A stretch of 62,545 bases of DNA, filler included, from Rhabdomonas costata (Eukaryota), in the NCBI GenBank assembly GCA_019059605.1. It is 42 parts of 42 records of this genome, joined end to end, with 100 filler letters (N's around TTAATTAATTAA, not from the genome) between each part and the next. Parts side by side here need not be neighbours in the genome. Positions count along the whole stretch, not along the records: positions 49,227 to 50,617 come from JAHMHO010017319.1; 41 more parts are not named here. One strand, 5' to 3'. Below are positions 5,101-56,600 of this stretch, in pieces; position 1 is the first letter of the stretch, and each line of letters starts with the position of its first letter. Below the pieces are notes generated by a model that ran no database searches, was not told the origin of the DNA, and was given only the letters and a program-made list of their open reading frames with translations. A program made the position numbers and the translations under genes.

Positions 5101-6715
5101 TTGCTTGAGACGAACTTTGGCTGTGGAAGGTCCGTAGTTTTCCCCAAAGACGGGACTCTAGTCAAGTGTAAGCTGCCAGGCAACATGTTGCAGTAGCCAT
5201 TGCCATCAAAAGCCATTTTAGAATCCGGAGGTGTTGCCGATGGGACGGGTACATGAAAGCTGCGAAATACAAGGCATGTCGATCCATGCTATATCCTAAT
5301 TTAATGCACAAACACACCTTACCCCTAAAAAAATGGGCTTCAAAACATTACCACCACAATCATGCGCCATCCATCGCTGTGCACAGGCAGGCTGACAAAC
5401 CTGTTGTTTGGGAAACATGAATGCGACCCGATCGATAAGGGCTGGGAGTGGTGGAGTTGCTGCCCGATTCTGCAGAGACCAGCAGCACCCGGTCACACCC
5501 GGTCACAAGCTCATACAAACGTGTTTAACGTGCGCCTGTCCCATTTCGCGAAGGATGTGAATTAATGCGTGTGTGCGGAACCCGTCCACTACCCTGCACA
5601 TCCACTCGCGTGTTAGTTCACAGGAGAACATTCTGCAAGGAGAATATTCAAGAAATTGAAAAAAGCATCAGCTGATCTTCGGATGGCGGCGAAGCCACGG
5701 AAGCCACTTGCCACCGCTCTTTTCCAACCACTCGCTCACACACATAGTGATATGTGCATGACGCAATGAATTAAGCAAGCAAGCAACCCTCGCTCACATA
5801 TCGCCAAGGACAATTTTTCACGAACCATGTACTTTCTCATGGCAGTGCCTAACGCGAACACCCCCCCNNNNNNNNNNNNNNNNNNNNNNNNNNNNNNNNN
5901 NNNNNNNNNNNTTAATTAATTAANNNNNNNNNNNNNNNNNNNNNNNNNNNNNNNNNNNNNNNNNNNNGTGGTGGGTGTGTTTGGGGGGGTTGTTCTTGAC
6001 CTTTTTCGCTGCGGATGTGGGCTGTCCCACCGGATCTCCTCGGTCTTGGGTTATGGTTGCACACCAGTCAAGAAAACATTCGCTTTCGGTGACGAGTTAT
6101 CTTTTGAACCTGGCTTTGCAGGGCCTGCTTTGGATTTGTCTGTCTCCCCCCCCCCCGTTGAAGTGCACCTCCACGCAGTACTGTAGGTGTGAGGTTCCAC
6201 CGTTCGATGTCACCTTCCTTAATGCGCCTCTTCTCATTGCATAGGGTGCCGTAGTACTCTCTGAGAACAGCACAGCTTTCACCATTCCGGCGCCTAATCC
6301 AGGTGTTTTTCTCATATCTCAGTGCCACCGCACCTCCCCGCCCATCCTCCAATGATGCCACCAGCCTTTGTTCGTAAAACGCCGTCGTGAACCTCCCCCT
6401 TCAGAGCAGCCTGGAGATTTGGTTCGGACGGCTGAGTTATCAGTTGCATCGCGGTGGCGTTGGAAACGTATTTGGTGAACAGGAAGCCACATTTTTATGC
6501 GCCATTGCATAATAAGAATGAGACACTTCCTTCCTTTACTGAGGTTTTTGGGGGCCAGAAAACTTGTCCCCGTTTTTCGAATATCGGAGACGACTTTTCC
6601 TCAGGGAATTACTGTCTGCCAGAAAGGCCACTTACGGGTTCCAAACTGCCAGAACTGTGCTAAGTTTTCAAGTGCCTTCCTGTGCCTGGCCTAATTTCTT
6701 TCCATTCTGTCGCAG

Positions 6716-11819: not shown

Positions 11820-12471
11820 AATCCCACAAACCCACNNNNNNNNNNNNNNNNNNNNNNNNNNNNNNNNNNNNNNNNNNNNTTAATTAATTAANNNNNNNNN
11901 NNNNNNNNNNNNNNNNNNNNNNNNNNNNNNNNNNNGTTTTTGATATATGCTGCACGCATGTCAATGACACGCGTGCAGCATATATCTTAAATCGCCTAAA
12001 AAGACCTATGTTGCGCGCATCGCCTAAAATATCTTTGGTCACATTGGCCTGGTGCTTGATGCCCCGCCTGTCCCATGTTTAGGGATGGATATGAATAGCT
12101 CTCCGCTCAAACCAGCCGAACCCGAAGGATCCGAAAGTGTACCATTAAAATACTCACACCACTGAAACGCCTGTAGGAGCAGCTACGCTGATACGCATTC
12201 GAAACGCTCTCCTTTTTTATCCACTAATTCATGAACACAAACCACCCCCCACCCTACACCTTGGGGTCTGAATCACACTTTTGGGGGCGCGGGGTGTAAA
12301 ATGGAAGATGTTGCAGGGGGTTAGAGGGCGATGCACGCGGTCCCTGGGACAAGTCAGAAGATGTTCAACGACTTTAACCCAACCTTGCATATTTTTGTGG
12401 TGTGATGTCACGCAGGACCTCCTAGGCCTCTGCACCGGCACAAAGGCACAGAGAACGCTGGAAGAAAAGAC

Positions 12472-13309
12472 CTGGGACTGGCCGTGGCCGTGGCCGAGCT
12501 GGCCACAGCCCCCGTCGCCCCAGGAGTACACGTATCCATCCGCCGCCAGGGCCAGAGTGTGCACCCCGCCGCACTCCAGCCGCCGCACCGCCTTCCCACA
12601 TAGAGAGACCACCACAAAGGGCAGCGCGCGTGGTTCCTGAAATTTCGCGCCACGGCCACAATGCGAAAGGAGGTGGGAGGGTGGGGCACAGCGGAGGTTT
12701 CAGACCATGCATCAGCGTCTGTCCCGAGTGGCGAACTCCTTTGGCCCTTTTTGACCCTCCAATCCGCCCTATCCAGCGTAAAATCAACAAGATGGAAAAA
12801 ATCCACCCAAGGCTGTTCTGATTCATTTTCATTGATTCAGGGACAATGTACGGGACAATGTACGACCATTCCAAGCACAGGAGATGGTCCAGTAGGTGTA
12901 TGTTGCCGAAAGCCGGCAAGGACAGTCCAACTCCACCAAACTTTCGTGGCTGCAGGTGTTGGGCCACTCCTTCAAAACTGACTCTCTTTCAAAGACGGTC
13001 CTGCCTTGGAGGTCACACACATGCACAATCACACATGGATACCTTTGTGTCGTAGGACTGGCCCCAGTAGTACACATCCCCAGACTCGGCCAGCGCGCAG
13101 CAGTGGCGGTTACCGCACTGTACCCGCAGTACAGGAAGCGCGGCCAGAGGCCCGCCTACCCGCGCCGGGAACAGGCCGTTAGCCAGGCTGCCGGTGCCGA
13201 GCTGCCCATGCATTCCCACCCCCCAGCACAGCACCTCTCCCTCCTCCGTCAGCGCCACGCTGAAGCTCCGCCCGGCCTTCACGTAGGCCACAGGTCGGCC
13301 CACCAGGGC
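12472..13309 (-). CDS. RCC1-repeat protein (exons 13309-13043 and 12636-12472)
   Basis: Motifs VKAGRSFSVALTEEGEVLCWGVGMHGQLG, VQCGNRHCCALAESGDVYYWG and LECGGVHTLALAADGYVYSWGDGGCGQLGHG. A phase-0 GT-AG intron joins the exons. Confidence 0.93.
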
Positions 13310-13687
13310 CTATGGGTTTGATACATTCGNNNNNNNNNNNNNNNNNNNNNNNNNNNNNNNNNNNNNNNNNNNNTTAATTAATTAANNNNNNNNNNNNNNN
13401 NNNNNNNNNNNNNNNNNNNNNNNNNNNNNTTTGTGTGTGCACCTGTTGTACCTTTACCCCGTGTGTGATTCAATTGCTTTCCTATAGTGTTTGTCATTCG
13501 CTCGCCATCTTCCTGCCTTGCCAGTTTTTTCCCTTGGCTCGTCCTCTGCAACTTGTTGCTTTGTTCCTGAATCGCTGTCTTGGCCACGCCCGTTGCCACT
13601 GCGCTTTCGTTTTTTTGCTACCACCGCCGACACCTGACAGCTGACATTGATAATAACCTCTTTGGTCACCTTTTCTCATTTTTCCAG

Positions 13688-13924: not shown

Positions 13925-15349
13925 GAAGAGATGTGGATGGGGTAATGGCCGCGCGGCCGAATGATCCGGCCCTGGAGGCCTGCGCATTCCCCGAACCAAG
14001 AACCTTATTTTTGTCTGTGTAATGGGGAGCAGCTTCTGAACGCGGATCAGGTGGGCTGCCTTGCCAGTAGTGGGAGTGTTGGTTTGGGGGGGTGTTCCGC
14101 TGCCGGGCGGTGTTCATGCGTTTGGTAGGTATTTGTGCTTGTACAGGCAGTGCTTCTGTGGAGGTTGGGGTGGAAAAGCGTATTGGCTATACACTTTGTG
14201 TGACTGTGTAGTCTCACCATGCACCCCAAGGTACCCTGTGGGGATGTTGTTGCACGGGTTGTTTTTTCTGCCCTGTTTTTTGTTTTATCGCCGTTGCCTT
14301 CTTTTTTTGTACATATTATGCAGCGCTTTTTCGCTGCCGCGACTGGTCTGACCTTCAGACACTGAAGGTCACGGGGACTTTGCTGAACCGTTGCCACGTC
14401 TGATTTCTTTTCAGAAAGTTTAACAAAGAATATAGTGCGAATGCTGTCCTTATTGTTATTGCAAAAAAAAAATTGAGCTTTGGTGGGAGGAATCCCATGG
14501 GCTGATGCTTAGAGTGCCTTGGCTCTTGCTCAAATTCGGCGGCTGGTTCGCAGCCAGAGCTCGCTGTGAGTGTGGGGGCTCGTTTATATTTAGAAAACAC
14601 ATGAATCACCCCGTGCTAACAGGTGGTGTTGCATTGCAGGAATAAAATGAAACTGGGAGAGCATTCCGCCACAAGCTCAGCGCCCTTTGGCAACTCCGCT
14701 GATTCTGGTAAGCTGGGAAGAAGTAAGTCACACAGCCCCAAAAATAAACCTGAAAGGCCCGGAAAGACTGAACTATAGCTGAAAGTAAGAGTGCTGTCCC
14801 CGGCTCTGGGCCTCTGGTGCANNNNNNNNNNNNNNNNNNNNNNNNNNNNNNNNNNNNNNNNNNNNTTAATTAATTAANNNNNNNNNNNNNNNNNNNNNNN
14901 NNNNNNNNNNNNNNNNNNNNNTGCCGTGCCCTGGGGCCCTGCCCGCCGTACCACCCCAGCGCGTACGCCGAGAGCATCCAGTGCAACCACGTGGAGCACT
15001 GGAAGCGGCTGCGAGCAAAGCGGGTGAGCGTGCATACCGAATGCCATGGCGTGTGATGTGCTGTCTTGGTTCCTTGCATGCAAAAGTGCCCGGTTGGTAG
15101 GGCATTGTTTTGGTGGCGCAGCATTGGGGAGTGGGATGTTTCTATGGAGATGAATACGCACGAGCTATACGTGTACCAGCAGACACTGTGTCCCGGGAAG
15201 GCGAACTAAGTGCAAAAGGATCACGGGTTCCCAGGTTCTTTGGGCCCTGCGGTTGTTCGTCCTCAACTTGACCGTGTGGGCCAGCCTCGCCCAAGTGGTC
15301 CGTCACGTTGACTGCAATCACGTTCGTTACCATGAGCAGGTACCTGAAG

Positions 15350-16313: not shown

Positions 16314-19115
16314 NNNNNNNNNNNNNNNNNNNNNNNNNNNNNNNNNNNNNNNNNNNNTTAATTAATTAANNNNNNNNNNNNNNNNNNNNNNNNNNNNNNN
16401 NNNNNNNNNNNNNAACGAAGAGCCAAAGAAAGAACGGGGAAGCCTCCATCTTGAAGTGAGCATCAAAACTCCAATACACAAAGTCTCAAAGCCCCACCCC
16501 GTTACCAGGCTTTGTTTGCACCCTTCAGTGTATATGTATCACACTGAGACGAGGTAATGCCATTTTTCCAAGAAGCATTCACTTCCTGGCATGCAAAATT
16601 GCTGTGAAGGACGCTCTTGGATGGTTTTTATCTTTCGTTAACATGCACGACCATGTATCACTGATTTATCAATCCATCCATCAATCAATAATTTAAATAA
16701 ATCAATCAATGAAATCTGTTTTTGCATCAAAATTAAGTCTCCAACTTCATTAAAACGTCTCATTGGCACTTACAAAATGAGGAATCTTGCAACAGTGTGG
16801 GAGGTGTTTCTATTTGCACTGTGAAGTTACCTGCATGTAGAGTGAGGAGACTAATTAAAACTACCATATTTCCGAGTGGATGTGTCGACCACCGCTAAGG
16901 TGGGGTGATGTCTAATTTGCTGATGCAAATGGAAGGTTGCTTGCGTTTATGTCCATATTCCTCGTATGACATCCTATTTCTTGTTCCACAGTATTCTTCT
17001 CATGTAAGGGCGCTTCGGCTTGCTTGCGTCTCTGCCGGCATAATCAGTGCAATTGCCAATACAAACCAAAAACCACCAAAAGCTCTACAAAGAATGAGAT
17101 ATGAATTCTTGCAATAGAACTTCGCGCCTAGTTGGGACCAGTTGGAGGGTAAACTGCAGGTTGTGGCTCGTGTTCAACTACCAAAGGGCCCACATTCGGG
17201 TTTGCGCCATCCGTGCCGAATCCACAAATGGAGGGACCCCAAAGGGGTCGGGCGGCCGAGATTACGGGATTAACCCCTTTCTCCAAGTAATGGTTCTTCG
17301 ACCAGAAGTTGGATGGTTATCGGTAATCGACGCCTAGGTATCGATATCAGCATATCAAGCACAAGCTAGACTCGTGTTAGTCAGCCGAACTGGTCCTGCG
17401 AGCTCAGAAGTGTGAGATATCGCCGAAACGCAGTCCGGTTACTTCGCTTGTCTGTCGAGTATCAGCCGAATTCAAAGTCAAAGTGCCCCGTGCTGAGGTG
17501 AGGCGGGGTATCACGCCTTCGGCAGAGGGCCCTACTCGATTGTTCACGAGCAACCCAACGTTGGCACGATTTACCTGTCGCGGACACTGTATACCTAAAA
17601 CAAATTTTGTCTGCCACACCTTCACTTGGGGCTTGTTCAAACAAGTGCGCCGCGTTCGTACCGTTGCTGGGTTAATTGAACAATACCCTGCATTTTCAAG
17701 ACAAAAAGGTCAATGCTTTTGTACCTTTTTTGGGGTGTGAAAAAACCCAGCAGCTGCATAGCCTGAGGCTGTGAGCTTTTATTTTGCATTCTTCCCCCAC
17801 CAACCNNNNNNNNNNNNNNNNNNNNNNNNNNNNNNNNNNNNNNNNNNNNTTAATTAATTAANNNNNNNNNNNNNNNNNNNNNNNNNNNNNNNNNNNNNNN
17901 NNNNNGTGGTGGGTGTGTTTGGTTGTTGGGTGCCCCATTGTGAAACAACATTGATTACTGGGGAAGGGGGGCACGTGTGCTTTGCACAGCGACCGCAAAA
18001 GTGCCCAAATGGCTTTTTCCAGCTAAAAAGACCAAAGTTAGGGGTGAAACGATGGTTTTTGGGCAAAAATTGATGAAAAAGGAAGCATTACAAAAGAAAA
18101 AAAAGCAAATTACAGTACACGCGGATGAGTGGGGTGGCAACGACACAAAAATTACTTGAGGGTAAGCCTCGTCTTGGGGAGGGCAAGAGGAGTTCCGGTG
18201 ACGGAGAAGCTTATTCCATTCCAATTTGACGAATGTTAATGTTGTAAATGACACCAGGCTCTCGACAAAACAAAACAAAACAATTTTGGTCAGAGCGAAG
18301 GGAGGCCAAAAAATTGAATAAAAATTTTCTTACCACCTCGACCCCTCGGGTCATACCCACCTTACGGATGCCAAGTTCAATTCCTTGTCCATCAATTTCC
18401 GGCTGAAATTTTATTTTTCATTTCCCAGTTCATTTACAGTCAGGTTTTTCTGGTTTATAATAATTTCATGATTTTTAGAAAATACCTTCACGTTTTAATA
18501 CGTTTTTTTCGAAAGTCAACCACTCACTAATTGGACCATCACCGCAAGTCGGAGCACTGGTGGCCGAAGCACAAGCGGAAACGGAAGCCGAGGAAGAGAG
18601 CGTCACGTCGGACGGGTCACTGTGATGGGTTAGGGGAGGGCAGGAAAGTATGGAGGGGTTCCCCCAGAGAGCAGTGACGGAGGGTACGCAACGAAGTGGG
18701 GGCCCCCCTGGGGTGCCGCTGGGAAGCGTTTCCCACAAAGTGAAGGGGCTTTCAGGTCCACTGCCATCCCCTGCAAGGTATAAGCAACATATAAGCATAT
18801 CGAATAAGGTAAAAGGCAAATACGATCAAGCAACCGCTTACCATCTTCAGTTTAATAGAAAAGCACAGCGAAAACGAAACGCGAAAAACGACCGCAACAA
18901 AAGAAAAACCTACCACACAAGCGGAGAACACACTTATGGTATGCCGCACTCTGCCTGCCTTCATAGAGTGCGCAGGCCCAAAAGAAAGAGAATAGTACGA
19001 GACGGAGTTCTTTCTCGAGTTTTTCCAACCGCTTTTTGCCATTGTTTACACAAGCTGAAGATGTAACCTGGGAGAGGGAAAATAGGATTAAAATGCATGG
19101 CACGCAGGTGTGTAC

Positions 19116-38578: not shown

Positions 38579-41500
38579 CTGTGGCAGAGAAACAGAGAGC
38601 CCCACATGGACTATGACACCGCGAAGAAGGAAGGACGACGGTGAAGGATAAAAGCTCAGAATGGTAATAACCAATCAAAAAAAACNNNNNNNNNNNNNNN
38701 NNNNNNNNNNNNNNNNNNNNNNNNNNNNNTTAATTAATTAANNNNNNNNNNNNNNNNNNNNNNNNNNNNNNNNNNNNNNNNNNNNGTCCGCCCCCAGCAG
38801 CACCACCGTGCGGGCAGAGGGCTCCTCAGGCAGCGGGTAGCTCACTTGCAACCCTTCCGCGGGTTGCGGGTGGGGGGAGCTTGCATTACCCTTCCACAAG
38901 GCAATCCCTGAATGATGAATGGGTAAGGGTGTGACGGCAAGGGTGCGCTTCTGACCCCTAAAAACGACCAACTACGGGAACACCAGAAGATCGCCACCTA
39001 AACCCCCAGTAAAAAGTATATTTGCATTCCGGGAATCGCCAGAAGGCGCGCGCGGTGGCGCGGCAGCTGGGACACATGGTGTAGCACCCGGGGGAAGCCG
39101 AGAGCGGCTCTGCACTATTGTGGAGGCAGCACAGTGAGTTTTGTGGGCACTGGCGGCCAAGAGGCGTCGGCGTGACGGGAGAGGCGGGGGGGGAAGTGGG
39201 TTTTGTTGCAGATACGTTGTGGGTGCCTTCGCTAAACCCTCCGCTGCGTGGGGCAAGAAGCAACACAAAAGGGTTACGAAAGAGCCGCCAAGAAGCACCA
39301 CCACCGGCCGAAGGTGAAAGGTCGGGACTCTCCTGACCCCAAGGACCCGCCACGCAGCGTTTCGGGACGCCTGCTGTAAATACAAAAGACCCAGGCCTGC
39401 TTCGCTTCGCCCTCTAAACGTTGTTTTGGTTGTGTTGTTCAATATACTGAGTGAAACAGAGAAATCGGAGGTTGCGAAGACAATATTTTACACATTTTAC
39501 ACATTTGGCAACGAGCGGAAAGCGCTTGTTGGAGGATGCATGTTGTTCATTTTTAGTTGGATCGGACTTTAAACGGCCTCTCATTGAACTTTGAGGTTTT
39601 TGGGATTTTGAAATCTTTTGGCCAACGTTGAATGGACGTTGCACTTTGAAGATTTTTGACCTTCTCGGCAGAAGGGCATTGAACTTTGAACGGGTGACAT
39701 TGAATTGAATTGAACCGAACCTCTTTGGTCCACATTGAACTTTGAGGGTTTTGCAAAACAGGGAGAGGAACGCGGATATCATAAAGGTCGCATTTGAGGA
39801 CAGTATGATCGAGGCATCCGGCAAATTTGGCGTCCACGCGCCACCAGTCAACAGACCGGGTACAGCCCTGCAGCCCGCTGACCGGTGCCGGTGTAGGCAC
39901 ACCGTTGGAACAGCAGCGCTCGCATTCCGGGTACATTGAAAAAAGAGAAGAGCAAATGGCCAGAGCAACCGGTGGAACCCACTTCGCTGGAGCCTCCAGG
40001 CCACCTCCTCATCCGTGCCTTGACAGAGGGGTGTCGCTCTTCGACCCTCTTCAACTTAGTGTGTCCTTCAATCAGGACTGCGGGCTGGTCGCCAGGCGGC
40101 GTGAAGGGATGAAATCAGCAAGCAATACTCTGACTCGTGCCAGCGTGCCACCGTTCGAGGCATCCAGGGGCCCCCACNNNNNNNNNNNNNNNNNNNNNNN
40201 NNNNNNNNNNNNNNNNNNNNNTTAATTAATTAANNNNNNNNNNNNNNNNNNNNNNNNNNNNNNNNNNNNNNNNNNNNGTGGTGGGTGTGTTTGGTTGTTT
40301 TTTTAGCATTTTGCCTGTTCTCTGGACGCAAAAAGGCAGTCATTCTTAAGTGTGAGTGCAATGTTACGTGGCAGGAAATGCGTGGTGAAGTTAGGCTTCG
40401 CTTGGATGGAGTCTGGGAGCCTCTCTCTTCTTCTCGCGTAATTCGTTGAAGATCTAAAAATCTGTAGACGCTCTGACTCGCCGCCTCCTCTGCAGGCCGG
40501 TGTGGACTCCTTTCTGCGCAAGCCCGTGAGCCGGGAGCGCCTTCTAGAGACCCTCCCAAGCTTGCTGGCCGAACTCGGCGCGCGGTCCGCACCGGTCTGC
40601 TGAGGTGTGACCGGCTTGCTTGGTGTGTTTTTGCGAAGCAGAGATGTTGAGAGAAGTTTTCGCTTTGGGTCGGATGCGCGATGCCGCCACCTCGACTGCA
40701 AGGCGCCATCACCACTCATTACCTTATCAGTCCAGCGATTATGAATCCTAGGTGGGGAATGCACAGGATAAGTTTGCACCCCAGTTTCGCCCCCACCCCA
40801 TCCCCGCTGAGTAGTTGGTGGCGTCCCGATGTCGTATTTGTGGGCATGGGGTTTGGGTACTCTATCACCGACCGGCACGATTGAGGTTTTGACATTGCAG
40901 GATTGTTTTCAGTCAAGAAGTTGTTGTGGTTTCGGGTTCAATATTGGTGCTGGTGTAAAGACCTGGTGCGGAGTATTAGGCTCGATCCGCAATTGCCGCA
41001 AAAACCAATAAGGGTGGGCTTGACATTCTGTCAGTTCCCTCTGGATGAGCATGAGGCAGGGAGGGGGGGAAGTTGGGGAGGAATGACGCTCGCTTATCTG
41101 TGCTCAGTGTTCACGGGTGATGTATTATTTTGTATTAAGTACCCTCCCACTCACCCACGTTATATTACAAAAAGTTGGATTTGCCACCATGTTGTGGGTG
41201 TCACACCAAAGACGCCGGCAGAAAGCCCTCCAAGGGCCACCGCCTGGGTGCAAACGGCCTTGCCGCCTTTCGCATCTAATGTGCTGTCAAAAGTGGACCC
41301 GACGGACTGCACTCTCCTGCCCCTATTGCAATAGGAGAGTTTAAGTACCATTCGATTGTATTGAGCAGTCCACTTGTCGTTCTCGTTGATCATTGTGTTG
41401 TGTTTTGTCATTCAGCGGGGTTTAGCTTCCCTTCCGGTTCCCCCAGGAGACCTTTTTAAGGTGGTGTGTTGTCGTTTATTTTTTTGTTTTTTGTTGGCTT

Positions 41501-42333: not shown

Positions 42334-42951
42334 GAGCGCCGGACCCGCGGCTGCTCTCGTGGGCGGACTTCCTGCAGGGCTGGGTCCCAGGAACCTTTGA
42401 GCGCCCCGTGGACAGCTGCAGCGCCGCGGTGATCATGTACACCTCAGGTTGGTTGCTCGCAGATCCTTTCGATCCTCCGCTTTCTCCTTTTCCCGCACTG
42501 TTGTCATTGACTTCCTCTCGTCCCTCGTACTCCCTTTCTCTACCCTGTGAGTTAAACATGTGTTTCTTCTGGGTTAGTTCATTGAAAGGGCTTAGCCGAC
42601 GCAGTCCTGAGGTCCTGTGAAAACAGCTGGCCTCCTGAAACGCTGCGTGGCCGGCCCTTGGGGTCAGGAGTTTCCCGACTTTTCGCCATCGGCTGGTTGT
42701 AGTGCCCCTTGGCGGCTCTTTAATATTCCTTTTGCGGCGCTTCTTGCCCCTATACGATGGTACTCACAACATGTTTGCCTTTGTGGTTTGGCTTGATTTG
42801 TGGTTGGTGCCAAGTCTGTGGAAGAGCTCAGCTGTGCTTTTCGACTTTCCTGTGAGCTCATGCTTTCCGTATTTGCGCCTTCGCACTTGTTTCTCTTGAT
42901 TCAGGAACGACGGGCAACCCAAACGGAGTCATGCTGAGCCACCAAAACTTG
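42334..42951 (+). CDS. AMP-binding / long-chain acyl-CoA synthetase (exons 42334-42447 and 42905-42951)
   Basis: The spliced A3 motif AVIMYTSG/TTGNPNGVMLSHQNL spans a phase-1 GT-AG intron. Confidence 0.92.
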
Positions 42952-49226: not shown

Positions 49227-50617
49227 CGCGTTTTACCACGCGGACGCAGAGAGACGGTGGAGTCTTCCCTTCTTCTCCACTTAGCCCTCCACCACAATGG
49301 ATGCCCATCCCATCTCGTCACGGAACAAGTAACAAACAAAGGGAAGCATCGCCCACGAGAATCGTCGCGGCCTCCGCCCCCGCCACCTGATTCTGCTGCC
49401 AGATGTGTGTGTAGTAGTCCGAGTCCGGCAGGACGACAACCAGTATCCACCGCAGTCCACTAGCCTGCGAAGTGGAGATCTGCATCTGCAGAACGACGGC
49501 ATCCCCAAAAGTGTCAAAGTGATGGTGCTGAATGCCACCGTCCTGAAAGTCGGCAGCAGTCCCAGCAAGGTGTTGAATCTGGAGGATGTCCCTGGTAAGG
49601 GTGACCGGGCTTGCCGTGGCGGAGGCGATCGGTGTCTTCGTGTCCTCCTCCATCAGAAGAAGCATTCCCGAGCTTCTCAGTTCGAGATGCGCCGCAGTGA
49701 GCTGGTCGCTTAATGCGGAGAAAGGGTAGGCCACTCCGTACGCCGCCGCGAGGGTGTTGTTCGGGTAGAACACCACGCTGGTGGCCGTGATCATGTGTGT
49801 GGTGGTCAGCGCGGACGGTGCTGTGTAGGTGAATGCTGGGCCTCCCTGGGCAGTGGCAGTGCGATACCATGGGAGAAGTCTAGGGTCAGTCATTGTAGTC
49901 AAGTAGACGCTTCCCAGGGAGCCGTTGAAGCTCCAAAAAGTCATGTTGGCTTCGACACCCACCGCGCATGGGGGTCGGTGACCCACAGCAACGCCCCCTG
50001 AGGGCATTCGAATGGCCCCCGCTGTCTCTCCATTGGGCTGAGCAAAGTACATTCCTTGCAGAACAGGGTTTTTACTCATCAAATTGTACGTGTACGACAT
50101 CACCTCCTGAGATGTGCTGTACCGCATTTCAGGGATGGCTTCCCATCCGTCAAGCAGGTGCACCATCCCAACCAGCACATTTCCAAGTCGGTTCTTCAAG
50201 TTGTACATCACCGTTGTCTGGAAAACAACAGAGAGATGCCGACAGAGGAGACAGCGGCTCCATTGAGGGTTAGCCACAGGCTGGCAGTAAAGGCACCCGT
50301 GAAGGCAAGCACCGTGGCCACAAAACACATACAAAGCGGTACAGTACGAGACATTCACAGCAGAACACAGTCTGAAGAAAAGGAGGAAGAGATGGAGCAA
50401 CCGTAGCAACCATACGTCGAATCCTGCAGTGGCATGTGCGTGCATCGCGTTTCTTTTGGACTGACTGCAAGGAAATATTCATTTGATCACCGCGTTTTAC
50501 CACGCGGACGCAGAGAGACGGTGGAGTCTTCCCTTCTTCTCCACTTAGCCCTCCACCACAATGGATGCCCATCCCATCTCGTCACGGAACAAGTAACAAA
50601 CAAAGGGAAGCATCGCC
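49227..50617. repeat. Exact 127-bp terminal direct repeat (49227-49353 = 50491-50617); unit length 1264 bp
   Basis: The first and last 127 nt of the contig are identical. Confidence 0.95.
49387..50217 (-). CDS. dCache-type extracellular sensor domain, single 831-nt phase-0 exon
   Basis: Motifs GMYFAQPNG, TDPRLLPWYRTA..GGPAFT, ITATSVVFYPNNTLAAAYGV..LSDQL, GMLLLME and GLRWILVVVLPDSDYY follow the dCache_1 pattern. The acceptor is TTTTCCAG and the donor is CAG/GTGGCG. Confidence 0.85.
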
Positions 50618-53600
50618 NNNNNNNNNNNNNNNNNNNNNNNNNNNNNNNNNNNNNNNNNNNNTTAATTAATTAANNNNNNNNNNNNNNNNNNNNNNNNNNN
50701 NNNNNNNNNNNNNNNNNGGGTTTGGGGTGTTGGGTGTGTGCGGTGTGTGTTTGTGTCGCCGGGCACGTGGCTGGGTGGGTGTGGATGGATATTTCTGTGT
50801 GCTCCCGAAGGGAACACAGGTTTTCCGGCACCCTTAGGAGTGAGTGAGTGAGTGAGTGAGTGAATATTTGCATGCTATTCGATCTGCACCTGAAGGCCGC
50901 GCATAAATCACTGGGCTGCTCGCTGGCTGCTGCAGCTTTGTACACGCCGTTTGCGAAGCTGCGGCGTTGATTTCTTCGTGTGTCGATGTTGCCATGTTTG
51001 CTGCGGTGCTCCAAACGGGATTCCTTCCCATACCCACCGCACTTCATTTTTTGCACTGATTGTTTTTTGCCCCGAAAGAAGTTGAACCACACACACACAC
51101 ACACACCCCTCCAAAGCGCGGTGGGGATGGAGCTGTGCCCGGCGCTTGGGGTGTGCATCCCCGTGGGCAAGGACAGCCTGAGCATGAGCACTCGGTGGGA
51201 GGCCGAAGGGAGCTCCGCAGTGCGCGTGGTCAGCCCTCTCTCCCTCATCATTACCGCCTTCGCCGTGGTGGCCGACGTGGTTCAGCACACCCGCACCCTT
51301 CTACACACACCTTCTCCCCCCAGTACGACCCGCTTGGCACTTCCAGAGAATCGAGACGGTTGTATACCTTGCTCATCGTCATGTTTACAGTCCCTCGTCC
51401 AGCCTCATGTGCAACCGCAGCCAGACAGAAGCCCCCAGTGAGCAACTGCAGTTAGTGGGAATCACCACGGCTTGTGGGATGCTCTCCATCGTATCAGCTC
51501 TGTCTCAGTCTTGAAAAAATGTTGAATGGCGAAACCTGCCATTTTTGGGGGGCCACCACCTGGCCTCTCGCTTTTTGCCACATCCTCCTCGTGGCTCGTG
51601 CTCAGAGGCAGACGCTGACCCCAGTGTTGCGCCGCGAGCCCGACACGGTGCTGCTGCTGGTGGACCTTGCGCTGGGCAAGCAAAGGCTGGGTGCCTCGTG
51701 TCTCGCCCAGGTGTGCTCACCGGTCAACGGTCATTGAAGGGGAAGCCCCAGAAGCCTCCGCTTATGCTGATGCGGTCACACCTTGCCTTATGCTCTTCTA
51801 TATCAAGCCACTCACACCAGACACATTTCACAAAGTTGCCATCGTCGTCGTTTCCTGCCTGTCCTTCCGGTGGGTTCTAGCAGCAGTGGCGGAAGGACAA
51901 AACGAGAAGCAAACCTACTCTTACTTCGTCGTTTGGTGGGAAGGACAATGGATGAGTGGGAGGGTACATTTGTTTGCATTCGTATGTGTGTGTGCATAAA
52001 TCTGATTTCCTCCCCTGGCATCTCGTCGCTCCCGTCTTCAGGTGTACCGCAGCCTAGGCTCTGCCGCCGTCGATGTTGAGGATCCCGTGCTGCTACGGAA
52101 CCCACACCNNNNNNNNNNNNNNNNNNNNNNNNNNNNNNNNNNNNNNNNNNNNTTAATTAATTAANNNNNNNNNNNNNNNNNNNNNNNNNNNNNNNNNNNN
52201 NNNNNNNNTGTGGTGGGCAATTGTATGTGTGCGGCCCAAGGGAACAGTGTGAAAATGCCTGTCCGTCGGGGGTTGGTGGGCAGCCAAGTGGGTCAGTCCC
52301 TGCTGAAGCAAGCAACCCGGAACCTGGCGATTCTGGCGAAGCACCCTGCGGTGGAGCCGAAGCTGACTCTAGTCAGGGAACAGCTGCAGGCTCTGCAGCA
52401 GAAGTTCGCCCATGCCAAGGGCAACTAAGAGGGATGAGGTCAACCCGAAGCAGAGGGAAGGAGAGGGGACGGTGATTGGGATTTTGGTGAGATGAGGAAC
52501 AGCGGCCGGGAAGACGGGTAAAGGGAGAGGGAAGGATTTGGTTGTGGGTTGGCTCTCGTGCAGTGGGCTGTTCATAGGCGCCAAAACGGCGATGGTTTCT
52601 CCAAACGGCCGGCTCAACTTTCCGTCGAGCCTTTCGCAGCGAGGCAGAACGAAATAGTCAGCCTCAGTCTGCTTTCTTCGCTGCTCTCTGCTCGTACTCC
52701 TTGATGTACCTGCGGTAGGACGACCCCCCTCTGCTGCTCTGAATACCCCCAATTGGTTTTTTAACGCATCTACGCAACACAGCCATTCCTGCTTCACCCG
52801 AAGTAAAGTGTGGCATTTCTTGTACACTGATATTATGGAGCCTGGAAATGCGAAAACACGCATGAAACATAAGCACAAAAAAAAGTAAATGAAATGTTTT
52901 TGCCACTTGCAGACCAAGTCTCGAACCTCCTGCCAACGCGAAACACTTGTCTCAAAAACAACAGCTTTGGAGCAGGGGGAAAGCCAGGATTGCCATCGCA
53001 ACACAGAGACCCTCCCCAATAATTGTCTCATCGGTTATGCAGCTGCATCCTCAGTTGCAGCCTCATATCGTGTTTCTGCGATGTGTCAACACTCACCCAC
53101 TCCGCACAGATATGCCGGTGGCCAAAGCGAAGACCAACCCGCCCCATGTCGGAAAATCCAAAAGACTATGCCGCTGCCACACCGTAGCCGGTGCACCAGC
53201 GGGGGATGCGAATCATGAAACAGGGAGTACAAGGGGTCAGGGTCCACTTCACCCTTCTCCTTGATGCACGTCCGAAGTAGCCCTGCAGAGAGAGAGGTAG
53301 TCATCGAACAAATCCGCTGATGTTTACCGTTCTGATGAAGAGAACTGACAACAGATTGCTCGGCAGGTTCTCTTCACACATTTATTTTCAGAGCGCCCGC
53401 CTGACACAATTATACTGTATTCCGCGCTTAAACAATCCAGCGCAGAATGAACTAATGCGCAGCGATGGAAGCGACGAGGATTCCCCGTGCAAGGGACTCG
53501 CCGAGACGTAAAGGCGGAAAAGTGACGGCCAACTCCGCTCAAAAAGCATTTGTCGAACATTCATAAGACATCGTAAATACTCGCTCACCACACCCCCCCN

Positions 53601-56600
53601 NNNNNNNNNNNNNNNNNNNNNNNNNNNNNNNNNNNNNNNNNNNTTAATTAATTAANNNNNNNNNNNNNNNNNNNNNNNNNNNNNNNNNNNNNNNNNNNNG
53701 GTGTTGTGGGCATGGTCTCTGCCGCAGGTCGGGGGTTTATCTCTCTCTCTCTCTCGTGCTGTTCGTCCGTTTGTTTGGTTACATTCCGGCCTTTTTTATA
53801 CAGAATTTCGACGCCCAACTTTCATTTATTGTTTTTGCCAAATGGTGCGCAAACTGGCCATCGGCGCCGCAGCCGGGTGAGGCAATATTGGTCGAATCTT
53901 TCTTTTTACAACGGCGCTTTGCTAAGCCCCGCGAAATGACATCCTATGGCGCCTTCGCCATGAGAAGTTCCTTTCGCCCTGGCCCCCCCATTTTTGTCGC
54001 GGTTTGTCCGCCTGCTCCGCCAAAGGCCATTTCTTTCCCCCCGGCTTTTCCGTTTCTTTATCCGAGGCCGCACATCAATCCATTTCTGATTACCTGTTTT
54101 AATGCCCTGTTGCTTTCCCATAGGAACGTTGATTCATTTTTGAATTTTCGGCCGTGGGGAGACGGACGCATAATGGAAGGATGCCTTATTAGACCCGTGG
54201 CGTTCTTTTCCATTAGCTCTTATGTTAAAAGCACCGGGAAGGGGATGCGACGAAGAAGGGGCCATCAGACGGCAGCGCATGGCGATTCGAAGTTTGTGGT
54301 CGGCGCAAAAAGTAACAAAAACAAAGTGGGGATGAGCAAACGCGGCGGACCAAGGGAAAATTAAAATTTTGCTAAGCGACTGGTTCTCAATCCAGAGTTT
54401 TTATGTTATAGATGGTGGGGGGTGCGCTCTTTCTCTATCGACCGCCCCATGTACAAAAAACATCGGGGGCTAAAGCCACCGTTAGTGCATACGGTGCTTT
54501 GCGCAGTGTAAAAAGACGGATATCGTGGAAATTTTGGTGGTTTTGGAGCAACAGTAGATCAGACATCAGAAATGGCCATCACTGAAATCACGTAATAAAG
54601 GGCTCCAATTTCGGAAAAAAGAGAGTCTTTTTGGTGATCGTGTGGGGCGTTTCTGCAGTCCCCAACTCGAGACCTTTTCAGTGGGTGATCTATGGGCGCG
54701 GAATTGTCTGCGTTGTTGTTAATGTCAGCGGTGCCGTAAGAATTGCGCAGGATCAATACCATTCTGTTTTCAGAAGCTCTGAAAATAAACTCGTAGAGTT
54801 GGCCAAATATAATGCTTTCAATCCCCCTATACACTTCCAGCAGCCCGACCCACACACCCACACCCACACCCACACCGAGGGGCTCCAGCACCCCCAGCAG
54901 CAGCAGATGCAGATTCAGGAGCATCACGCAGACGCTCCATCATCATCATTCTCATGTTGTGCGCGTTTCCACCAACGCCATGTGCTTCATCGGGCGCTTC
55001 CATTGGGAAGGGTGGGGCATCAGAGGCAGCAGCAGCACAAACTTCTCAAAACACAAGCACACATACAAACACACAAAAAAAACACCCACCNNNNNNNNNN
55101 NNNNNNNNNNNNNNNNNNNNNNNNNNNNNNNNNNTTAATTAATTAANNNNNNNNNNNNNNNNNNNNNNNNNNNNNNNNNNNNNNNNNNNNTTTTGTTTTG
55201 TTGGCCACCGCTGCAGCGGGAGTATTCGAGGTGGAGAGTATAGTATTGCTCGGCACTTTCGATGGACGTATAAGGTATAGCTGCCTCATTCGTGAGACTT
55301 TTTCGTCCATGGCTGTGACGCTCAAGAGGACCGCTTACCCCATTCCATACATTAGCGGGGACACAATTGTGCTTGCTTTTCGTTGCTGGATGACAGTGTG
55401 TATATTATGGTGTTTTGTCTTTTCTCGGATGATGTCCGGGCGTCAAATCTGAGCTGAACTGATGGCCCGCTTCTCGTATGCTCATTCGCTTCGGTTGGGA
55501 ACACTCGTGCTGCAAACTTTCCCTGGTGTGCAGCTGTGGCAATGCTCTTACAAGCTGCGCGCATGCTTCCAGGAATCTGGGTGACACGACCTAAATCATC
55601 CATCGCCCATCAAGGAAGATTTTTCAGCTTTTCAGGTATTTTAAAACTGTATCTTCACAGCAATACTCAGCTTCCTTGAACCAAGAGCGGCTGCCGCGTT
55701 TCCCCGTGGCTTTTTTTGCGGTAATATCCCGTAGCTGAACTTGTTAAATGGAAATTTTGATGGAATGATGAGACGTGAAGGTCGATAAAACCTGTGATTG
55801 CCGAAGCGTGCCACTGGATCATATTTGATTCCGGAAGTGCCGGGTTTTGTCTCACGCGGCATGTTCCAAACATACCATTGAGCTACTCTTGCATCCCTAA
55901 GTTTGAGTCCTTGCCCAGAGCTGTACCGAAAGTCCTTTTAAAAGTCCAAACAATTTGAAATTATCGTGCCTCTCTTGGATGTTTAAAGGGCACTAACTCC
56001 CCACTAAGAGCGCAGCCCAATAGTTTGCCCGATATCCTTCTGGTCAAGTGGCCAGACGTTTGAGGCTTTGAAACGGAGCGTATGATATGAGCCACGTGGC
56101 CCCGTAAAGACGAGTTCTTCACGAATGACGGTCACAAAATGCGGTGATGCTATTTTGGACATATCTCTTGTAAAAAGAAGTATGCCATACGCTCGAAAAC
56201 TGGTTGCCGCAAACGCAAAAAAAAATGCTGGGCGTTAAAGCGCGAAACCCGAGTCCATTTTTTCCTTTTTTTCTTTCCTTTCCTTTCCTTCCTTCAGCCC
56301 TCTCTGTACCCCAAATTGAAAATCCGACACTATGAAGAGGAAACCAAAGAACTATGCTGTTGTTTTTGCCTACCATTCCGGTAGAAGCGCATGGCATGGG
56401 GTGTTCATGATAGTTGCTAACCTCAAAACCACATAACCACATAAGGGCACACCACACCCACACACAAAGGAGCAAGACACGAAGAGGTGGAAGAGACCGC
56501 CGCACAGCATGGCATAAGAGAACACAGCATCCACGAGCATCCTCCCCATGACACCCACACCCCCCCAAACACACCCACCACNNNNNNNNNNNNNNNNNNN

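Follow-up and report, generated by a model that had tools for sequence, protein, structure and literature searches.

The bacterial dCache_1 ligand-binding domains, including those of PctA/PctD, TlpQ, Tlp3, Mlp24, KinD and mmHK1S-Z3, have a long N-terminal helix that is followed by a membrane-distal and a membrane-proximal PAS-like module, and in chemoreceptors and kinases they are situated between two transmembrane helices. The domain encoded by the locus described here is predicted to have the same succession of helix and modules in the same position, but it is only 9-18% identical to the solved structures, and its host is a eukaryote. TM-Cache-TM histidine kinases are also known as osmosensors of eukaryotes. 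The sections of PMC6944256 that deal with these proteins describe fungal group VI (Sln1-type) and plant AHK1 kinases with two transmembrane helices bordering an extracellular Cache loop of about 300 residues, which is followed by the kinase core. Three relatives of the sequence analyzed here, P0004, P0006 and P0011, agree with this architecture, the likeness being one of layout, whereas the copy in our contig is truncated in helix 2 and frameshifted.

The contig can also be compared with products of genome amplification and assembly. As in collapsed tandem duplications or circular de Bruijn paths, its ends overlap by exactly k, and 127 is the largest k in common use by SPAdes-type assemblers; the unit, however, is part of a gene and not a whole repeat element or replicon. 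With the template-switch chimeras of whole-genome amplification it has the short microhomology at the junction in common. The fold-back chimeras of the present data set are inverted and lie beside primer tails, whereas the junction described here is direct, spans 1.26 kb and is free of primer sequence.

Amplification remnants in the contigs

The window, i.e. the whole stretch of 62,545 bases that was analyzed, is composed of 42 separate contigs of 1389-1394 nt each, joined by spacers (N/TTAATTAATTAA), and does not represent a single locus. A run of at least 7 nt consisting only of G and T was found at the start of 26 of the 42 contigs, and a corresponding A/C-only run at the end of 31. Both tails are present in 19 contigs, at least one in 38 and neither in four. 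The motif GGGTGTGTTTGG (up to one mismatch) occurs five times in the window, always at contig ends, compared to an expectation of 0.68. It represents the 3' part of the universal primer TGTGTTGGGTGTGTTTGGKKKKKKKKKKNN, which according to the methods part of PMC10781638 served for the whole-genome amplification of heat-fragmented single-cell DNA. The sequence GTGGTGGGTGTGTTTGG, which opens three of the contigs, is one base off this universal primer. The G/T and A/C bases at the contig ends are primer-derived and non-genomic, fragmented template and a degenerate G/T primer were used for the amplification, and the contigs are mostly, or essentially, single amplicons. In addition, five of the 42 contigs end in fold-back palindromes located just inside the A/C primer tail, with near-perfect arms of approximately 43-58 nt and a loop of 0-70 nt. 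Their appearance is that of snap-back products from single-primer whole-genome amplification, which the assembler retained. The positions are as follows.

5968-5994, 17906-17932, 40278-40304 and 56551-56581: examples of the 5' tails (G/T only) and 3' tails (A/C only)
Last 88-184 nt of each of the contigs starting at 14922, 19398, 28347, 29836 and 56682: fold-back palindromes
11942-11986: further fold-back palindrome

The self-closing contig and its gene content

The contig at positions 49227-50617 comprises 1391 nt, and its ends overlap directly and exactly over 127 nt, which leaves a unit of 1264 nt. Among the 42 contigs, no other has ends that overlap directly by at least 12 nt, and the contig belongs to the four that have no primer tails. 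Neither the 127-mer nor the gene was detected in the other 41 contigs of the window, where tblastn matches had E values of 1.7 or worse. The comparison of the contig ends hence bears out the terminal overlap, the unit length and the missing primer remnants that had been stated in the original prediction, and supports its view that the contig represents a cycle in a k=127-type assembly graph.

A word-index search with this sequence gave four matches, namely P0042, P0043, P0005 and P0041, the last being a protein of 446 aa from a EukProt source that is 96% identical at full coverage. When P0041 was aligned to the contig by tblastn, its residues 1-39 matched 50354-50238 and its residues 41-335 matched 50235-49351 in a different frame (-3 vs -2), while residues 336-446 had no counterpart in the contig. 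The following features were assigned.

49227-49353: left copy of the 127-nt overlap, 100% identical to the right copy at a spacing of 1264
50491-50617: right copy of the 127-nt overlap, 100% identical to the left copy
50355-50490, minus strand: 136 nt directly upstream of the start codon, as read from the sequence
50238-50354, minus strand: codons 1-39 with the start codon and the N-terminal transmembrane helix MSRTVPLCMCFVATVLAFTGAFTASLWLTLNGAAVSSVG, 39/39 identical to P0041
50236-50237, minus strand: 2-nt remnant of codon 40 (Asp in P0041), frame change between residues 39 and 41
49351-50235, minus strand: codons 41-335 with linker, predicted dCache ectodomain and the first 12 residues beyond it (VAGAEAATILVG), 284/295 identical to P0041
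49351-49353, minus strand: junction codon GGC (Gly335), the last codon homologous to P0041
49318-49350, minus strand: non-homologous read-through of 10 codons (DASLCLLLVP) followed by TGA, from sequence and tblastn

In the orientation of the gene (minus strand), the left copy of the overlap follows the junction, with its last 3 nt (49351-49353) as the Gly335 codon; the right copy makes up the distal portion of the 260 nt that precede the start codon. Hydropathy peaks were found at residues 5-23 (1.94) and, in P0041, at residues 330-348; the stretch VAGAEAATILVG is the start of transmembrane helix 2. Judged by homology, the unit is composed of 260 nt of upstream DNA and codons 1-335 (1004 nt coding) of a TM-dCache-TM histidine-kinase gene. 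It covers the 5' third of a gene for a eukaryotic membrane sensor histidine kinase, including the first half of transmembrane helix 2. Only this sensor third is found in the contig, from which the H-box and the ATPase domain (HisKA, HATPase_c) are missing. Moreover, a 1-nt deletion in codon 40 breaks the reading frame. As sequenced, the copy encodes no working receptor and is unable to signal, because of the codon-40 deletion, the absence of the kinase part and the early stop 10 codons past the junction. The gene adds one to a protist family of TM-dCache-TM histidine kinases; what is present here is a truncated and frameshifted copy.

The amino-acid differences from P0041 are unevenly distributed. 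All 11 of them fall within residues 186-323, and none is found among the 184 comparable residues of positions 1-185, in which codon 40 is broken (Fisher p 1.2e-4). This restriction to one part of the protein indicates a distinct copy in a multi-copy family, and two further paralogues, P0042 (50%) and P0043 (43%), come from the same source as P0041. The mosaic divergence along 49351-50354 (minus strand) points to an exchange between close paralogues, by gene conversion or recombination, or else to a variable membrane-proximal module.

The original prediction had divided the unit into an 831-nt exon and a 433-nt GT..AG intron. Its description of the frame is correct: on the minus strand, 49387-50217 is open over 277 codons with phase 0 at both ends, and it is flanked by GT at 49386-49385 and by AG at 50219-50218, with a pyrimidine run before the AG. 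The division itself is contradicted by the tblastn alignment of P0041, which continues across both proposed splice sites. The proposed acceptor sits within the coding sequence ...LSVVFQ/TTVMYNL and the proposed donor within ...IWQQNQ/VAGAEAATILVG, and both stretches are kept in P0041 and in other relatives. The claimed exon corresponds to residues 47-323 of the coding stretch 49351-50235. The claimed intron encodes Met1 to Gln46, including the start codon and transmembrane helix 1 (residues 1-39 and 41-46 align), as well as Val324 to Gly335; it is not a stretch that is missing from the coding sequence of the orthologue, since it aligns to residues 1-39, 41-46 and 324-335 of P0041. An in-frame splice from the donor to its own acceptor (junction CAGAATCAG-ACAACGGTG) would remove both membrane anchors. 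A GT and an AG on either side of an open frame do not amount to evidence of an intron as long as no homologue has been aligned over both sites.

Ahead of the gene, at 50372-50395 (minus strand), a pyrimidine tract of 21 nt leads up to a CAG at a distance of 17 nt from the ATG. This could be a candidate acceptor, either for an intron in the 5'UTR or for trans-splicing.

The sensor domain and its relatives

Searches of Pfam with the piece encoded in the window gave no family even at E<=1; no family was obtained either with any of its pieces of 277 aa, 295 aa and 386 aa or with P0041. The gathering score of dCache_1 (PF02743) is 45 bits, and the close kin P0042, P0006 and P0004 remain under it with 40.4, 36.9 and 25.7 bits, respectively, while more distant bacterial relatives that were found with the window sequence reach 59-69 bits and exceed it. 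Among the 43 aligned family members, 35 match dCache_1 (E<=0.001), 30 MCP-like_PDC_1, 21 HAMP, 19 HisKA and 15 HATPase_c. As a lead, a language-model atlas places the window piece among clusters of dCache_1 and MCP-like PDC domains.

An AlphaFold2 model of residues 41-335, built on the family alignment, reached a pLDDT of 92 and a pTM of 0.84. It begins with a helix (H2-32) that is followed by two alpha/beta modules, which corresponds to the double PAS-like (PDC) fold. Foldseek detected 152 PDB chains at E<=0.001, and the best matches were all dCache ligand-binding domains, headed by PctD (7prq, E 1.5e-11) and followed by TlpQ, Tlp3, KinD and Mlp24. The family profile matched the ligand-binding domains of PctA, PctB and PctC with E values of 1e-18 to 1e-23 (4.7e-23 for PctA). 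The modelled fold and the transitive sequence evidence identify the domain as a divergent dCache, which falls below Pfam's own threshold. The assignment made in the original prediction holds only indirectly, through the family, in which 35 of 43 members match dCache_1, and through the structure model, but the window's own piece has no Pfam match.

A HMMER search against 1.84 billion representatives gave 39 matches, four of them at E<=1e-30. One relative, P0005, was found by the word-index search and by HMMER alike and is 77% identical, covering 48% of the query. Ten relatives that were read (P0002-P0011) have one sensor domain, which begins at residue ~47-140 after an N-terminal hydrophobic helix; in those that are long enough, it is followed by helix 2, a linker and the H-box (SHEMRTPL). 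In the HMMER search, the close relatives matched over one stretch. The seven proteins with a dCache_1 match each contain a single stretch of it, and the nine proteins inspected in Pfam have one or none. Hydropathy peaks place the putative extracytoplasmic domain between two transmembrane helices, once per protein. The single-domain relatives thus support the earlier notion of a sensor domain that sits once between two transmembrane helices, and they give no support to a poly-Cache receptor: none of them has two dCache domains (39 HMMER matches; nine proteins in Pfam). To judge from the family architecture, the dCache domain of intact members should bind an extracellular ligand, the signal then passing via helix 2 to the cytoplasmic HisKA kinase.

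Searching JGI metagenomes for DNA of the relatives (alignment A2) gave 195 pattern matches, none of which was confirmed. A protein search for short fragments containing the C-terminal part or the junction tail returned 238 candidates, none at E<=0.001.

The junction

The homology to P0041 stops at GGC (Gly335, 49351-49353), which is the exact inner edge of the 127-nt overlap. The 127-mer that begins with this GGC is found again 260 nt upstream of the ATG. Past Gly335, P0041 continues with FLATLVVMLHIF..., the rest of helix 2, and the contig reads GAT GCT.... There is a single head-to-tail junction with 3 nt common to both sides. The 263-nt spacer has no similarity to the coding part over more than 10 nt, and no primer sequence was found at the junction.

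According to the logic of de Bruijn graphs, an isolated loop is cut by the assembler at an arbitrary place. The chance that an arbitrary break point falls so close to the junction is about 1%. The cut at the junction suggests that, at the 127-mer, a second path with the native upstream sequence used to lead into the loop, since a loop anchored there would imply such a path if assemblers behave in this general manner.

Directly after Leu333 there is a GT (CTC/GTGGGC) that resembles the local donors GTTCAG and GTGTGC. It is possible that an intron starts there, 6 nt before the apparent junction; the Val-Gly reading would then have arisen by chance at about 1 in 16. Non-canonical donors of the dinoflagellate type had been considered at the junction as well and were dropped, because the PurL intron in this window is of the GT..AG type. 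The dinoflagellate spliced-leader motif had no match in the window with up to two mismatches.

Possible sources of the closed loop

We consider either an ordinary duplication junction or an artefact of the amplification to be the most probable cause of the closure. A head-to-tail array or a DNA circle, both proposed originally, are still live explanations, whereas the proposed unit of exactly one exon plus one intron is not; chimerism during whole-genome amplification had been left out of the alternatives, although fold-back chimeras are visible in five of the 42 contigs. Tandem duplication, chimera and circle all fit the sequence.

Tentatively, we regard a local tandem partial duplication of a truncated and frameshifted gene copy as the most likely source. 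In such a duplication, the Gly335 codon (GGC) would have been joined to the DNA lying 260 nt ahead of the ATG of the same gene, and two or more near-identical head-to-tail copies would have been collapsed into a loop by a k=127 assembler; we infer that the junction would in this case be present in the chromosome of the cell. The codon-40 frameshift is as expected for a real duplicated pseudogene copy, but it could also be an early amplification error. The contig represents a distinct family member, with all its differences from P0041 confined to residues 186-323, and an overlap of 3 nt at the junction appears weak for template jumping of the PCR type. The end of homology at the inner edge of the 127-nt overlap is also in favour of the duplication, although the underlying loop anchor depends on the assembler behaviour outlined above. 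Further points against it are the amplification of the DNA from fragmented template, with template-switch artefacts in five of the 42 contigs, and the donor-like GT after Leu333, from which an intron might begin 6 nt before the apparent junction.

It is somewhat unlikely, yet deserves serious consideration, that the gene is single-copy and continuous in the cell and that the closure was made during whole-genome amplification of the heat-fragmented DNA. A nascent strand ending in ...GTGGGC would have re-primed on the complementary strand about 1.26 kb upstream through the 3-nt match GGC; with neighbouring fragments having dropped out, the assembler would have been left with a closed loop. The data set plainly contains strand-switch products. 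Degenerate G/T-only primer remnants, which 38 of the 42 contigs carry at one or both ends, and the five occurrences of GGGTGTGTTTGG, all at contig ends and matching the primer TGTGTTGGGTGTGTTTGGKKKKKKKKKKNN given in the methods of PMC10781638, point to this kind of amplification, and the palindromes in five contigs indicate that strand-switch products were amplified and assembled. The contigs being mostly single amplicons, a loss of both flanks is plausible, and the junction cuts a coding transmembrane helix in its middle without biological logic. However, single-primer PCR is expected to favour fold-backs, in which a second primer site is made, and a head-to-tail product would gain no such advantage; the fold-back frequency is therefore not directly transferable to head-to-tail events. 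In addition, the overlap is only 3 nt, the junction is without primer sequence, and the codon-40 frameshift would need a second independent artefact or a pre-existing pseudogene. The fold-back chimeras of this data set indicate that strand-switch artefacts do get assembled into contigs, and in single-cell amplified assemblies a closure by exactly k should not be taken as evidence of an exon circle or a repeat-domain receptor.

An extrachromosomal circle appears unlikely to a greater degree. Small circles from the 5' ends of genes with short junction microhomology have been described in eukaryotes. In the present case, microhomology-mediated joining (GGC) would have released a circular DNA of 1264 bp from the 5' end of the kinase gene, and this circle, present in the sampled cell, would have been amplified together with the chromosome. 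The closed 1264-bp path without primer remnant and with a single junction of 3-nt microhomology is consistent with such circles. However, the sequence gives no distinction from a tandem duplication, PCR-type amplification does not enrich circles, and the loop anchor at the junction implies that a linear sequence entered the 127-mer, too. A feature for replication or maintenance is also lacking, as the contig had no Rfam match and, in Tandem Repeats Finder, no internal tandem repeat.

Improbable is a cycle that exists only in the graph and in no single molecule. It would require one locus where an element of 127 nt or more precedes an intact gene copy and a second one, in which a truncated pseudogene abuts another copy of the element at Gly335, the identical sequence common to both allowing the assembler to close the loop. 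The family is indeed multi-copy, with P0041 being 96% identical with mosaic differences and with the paralogues P0042 and P0043, and a frameshifted copy is present. However, this presupposes the loss of all four flanks and a perfect identity of the two loci over more than 1 kb, and the 127-mer and the gene occur in no other contig among the 42 of the assembly that were viewed.

We assign a very low probability to a genuine multi-copy head-to-tail array of promoter-proximal sensor cassettes that could be spliced to a shared exon for helix 2 plus kinase, thereby providing a eukaryotic two-component receptor with a bank of alternative first exons. An upstream region, a start codon, a membrane anchor and a dCache module would belong to every cassette, with CTC/GTGGGC as the usable GT donor at its end, and P0041 would be the product of a sister cassette differing only in the membrane-proximal module. 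Such a high-copy array, if true, would be an unusual route to diversify a eukaryotic two-component receptor, and it carries little weight now. Hardly tenable, finally, is the model of one dCache exon plus one GT..AG intron per unit, with in-frame splicing to the next copy (poly-Cache receptor) or use as a bank of alternative sensor exons: the GT and AG with the pyrimidine run, the 277-codon frame with phase 0 at both ends and the GT after Leu333, which could in principle act as donor of a first-exon cassette, speak for it, but both splice sites fall within what is coding sequence in P0041 and is retained by relatives, the supposed intron encodes Met1-Gln46 and Val324-Gly335, two dCache domains occur in no relative, the window copy is frameshifted, and a cassette spliced at Leu333 to the strong acceptor that precedes the ATG by 17 nt would run into a stop after about 33 codons (frame 0).

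Additional observations in the window

Pfam domains were found in six of the 125 open frames of at least 120 codons in the window and belong to RCC1, EGF, a PurL domain and low-complexity families. Two exons of PurL (FGAR amidotransferase) were placed with the help of P0045 at 51118-51279 and 51606-51710 (plus strand), with a GT..AG intron of 326 nt between them. The next PurL donor is GTGTGC at 51711, which corresponds to canonical splicing in the organism. The 120 matches listed in a search with a PurL exon for a spliced protein of the same species were 64-78% identical, and none of them came from the EukProt source; P0045 is a match from this search.

Repeated sequences were observed in other contigs. 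A direct repeat of 137 nt with 94% identity is located at 28362-28498 and 28843-28979, 481 nt apart within one contig. The stretches 39250-39413 and 42587-42750, which are 79.5% identical over 166 nt in opposite orientation, lie in two contigs and probably represent a dispersed repeat family. Finally, coding pieces with RCC1 repeats were found in 11936-13329 (minus strand), with open frames at 13016-13309 and 12232-12699; this region is part of a gene for an RCC1-like-domain protein with at least one intron.
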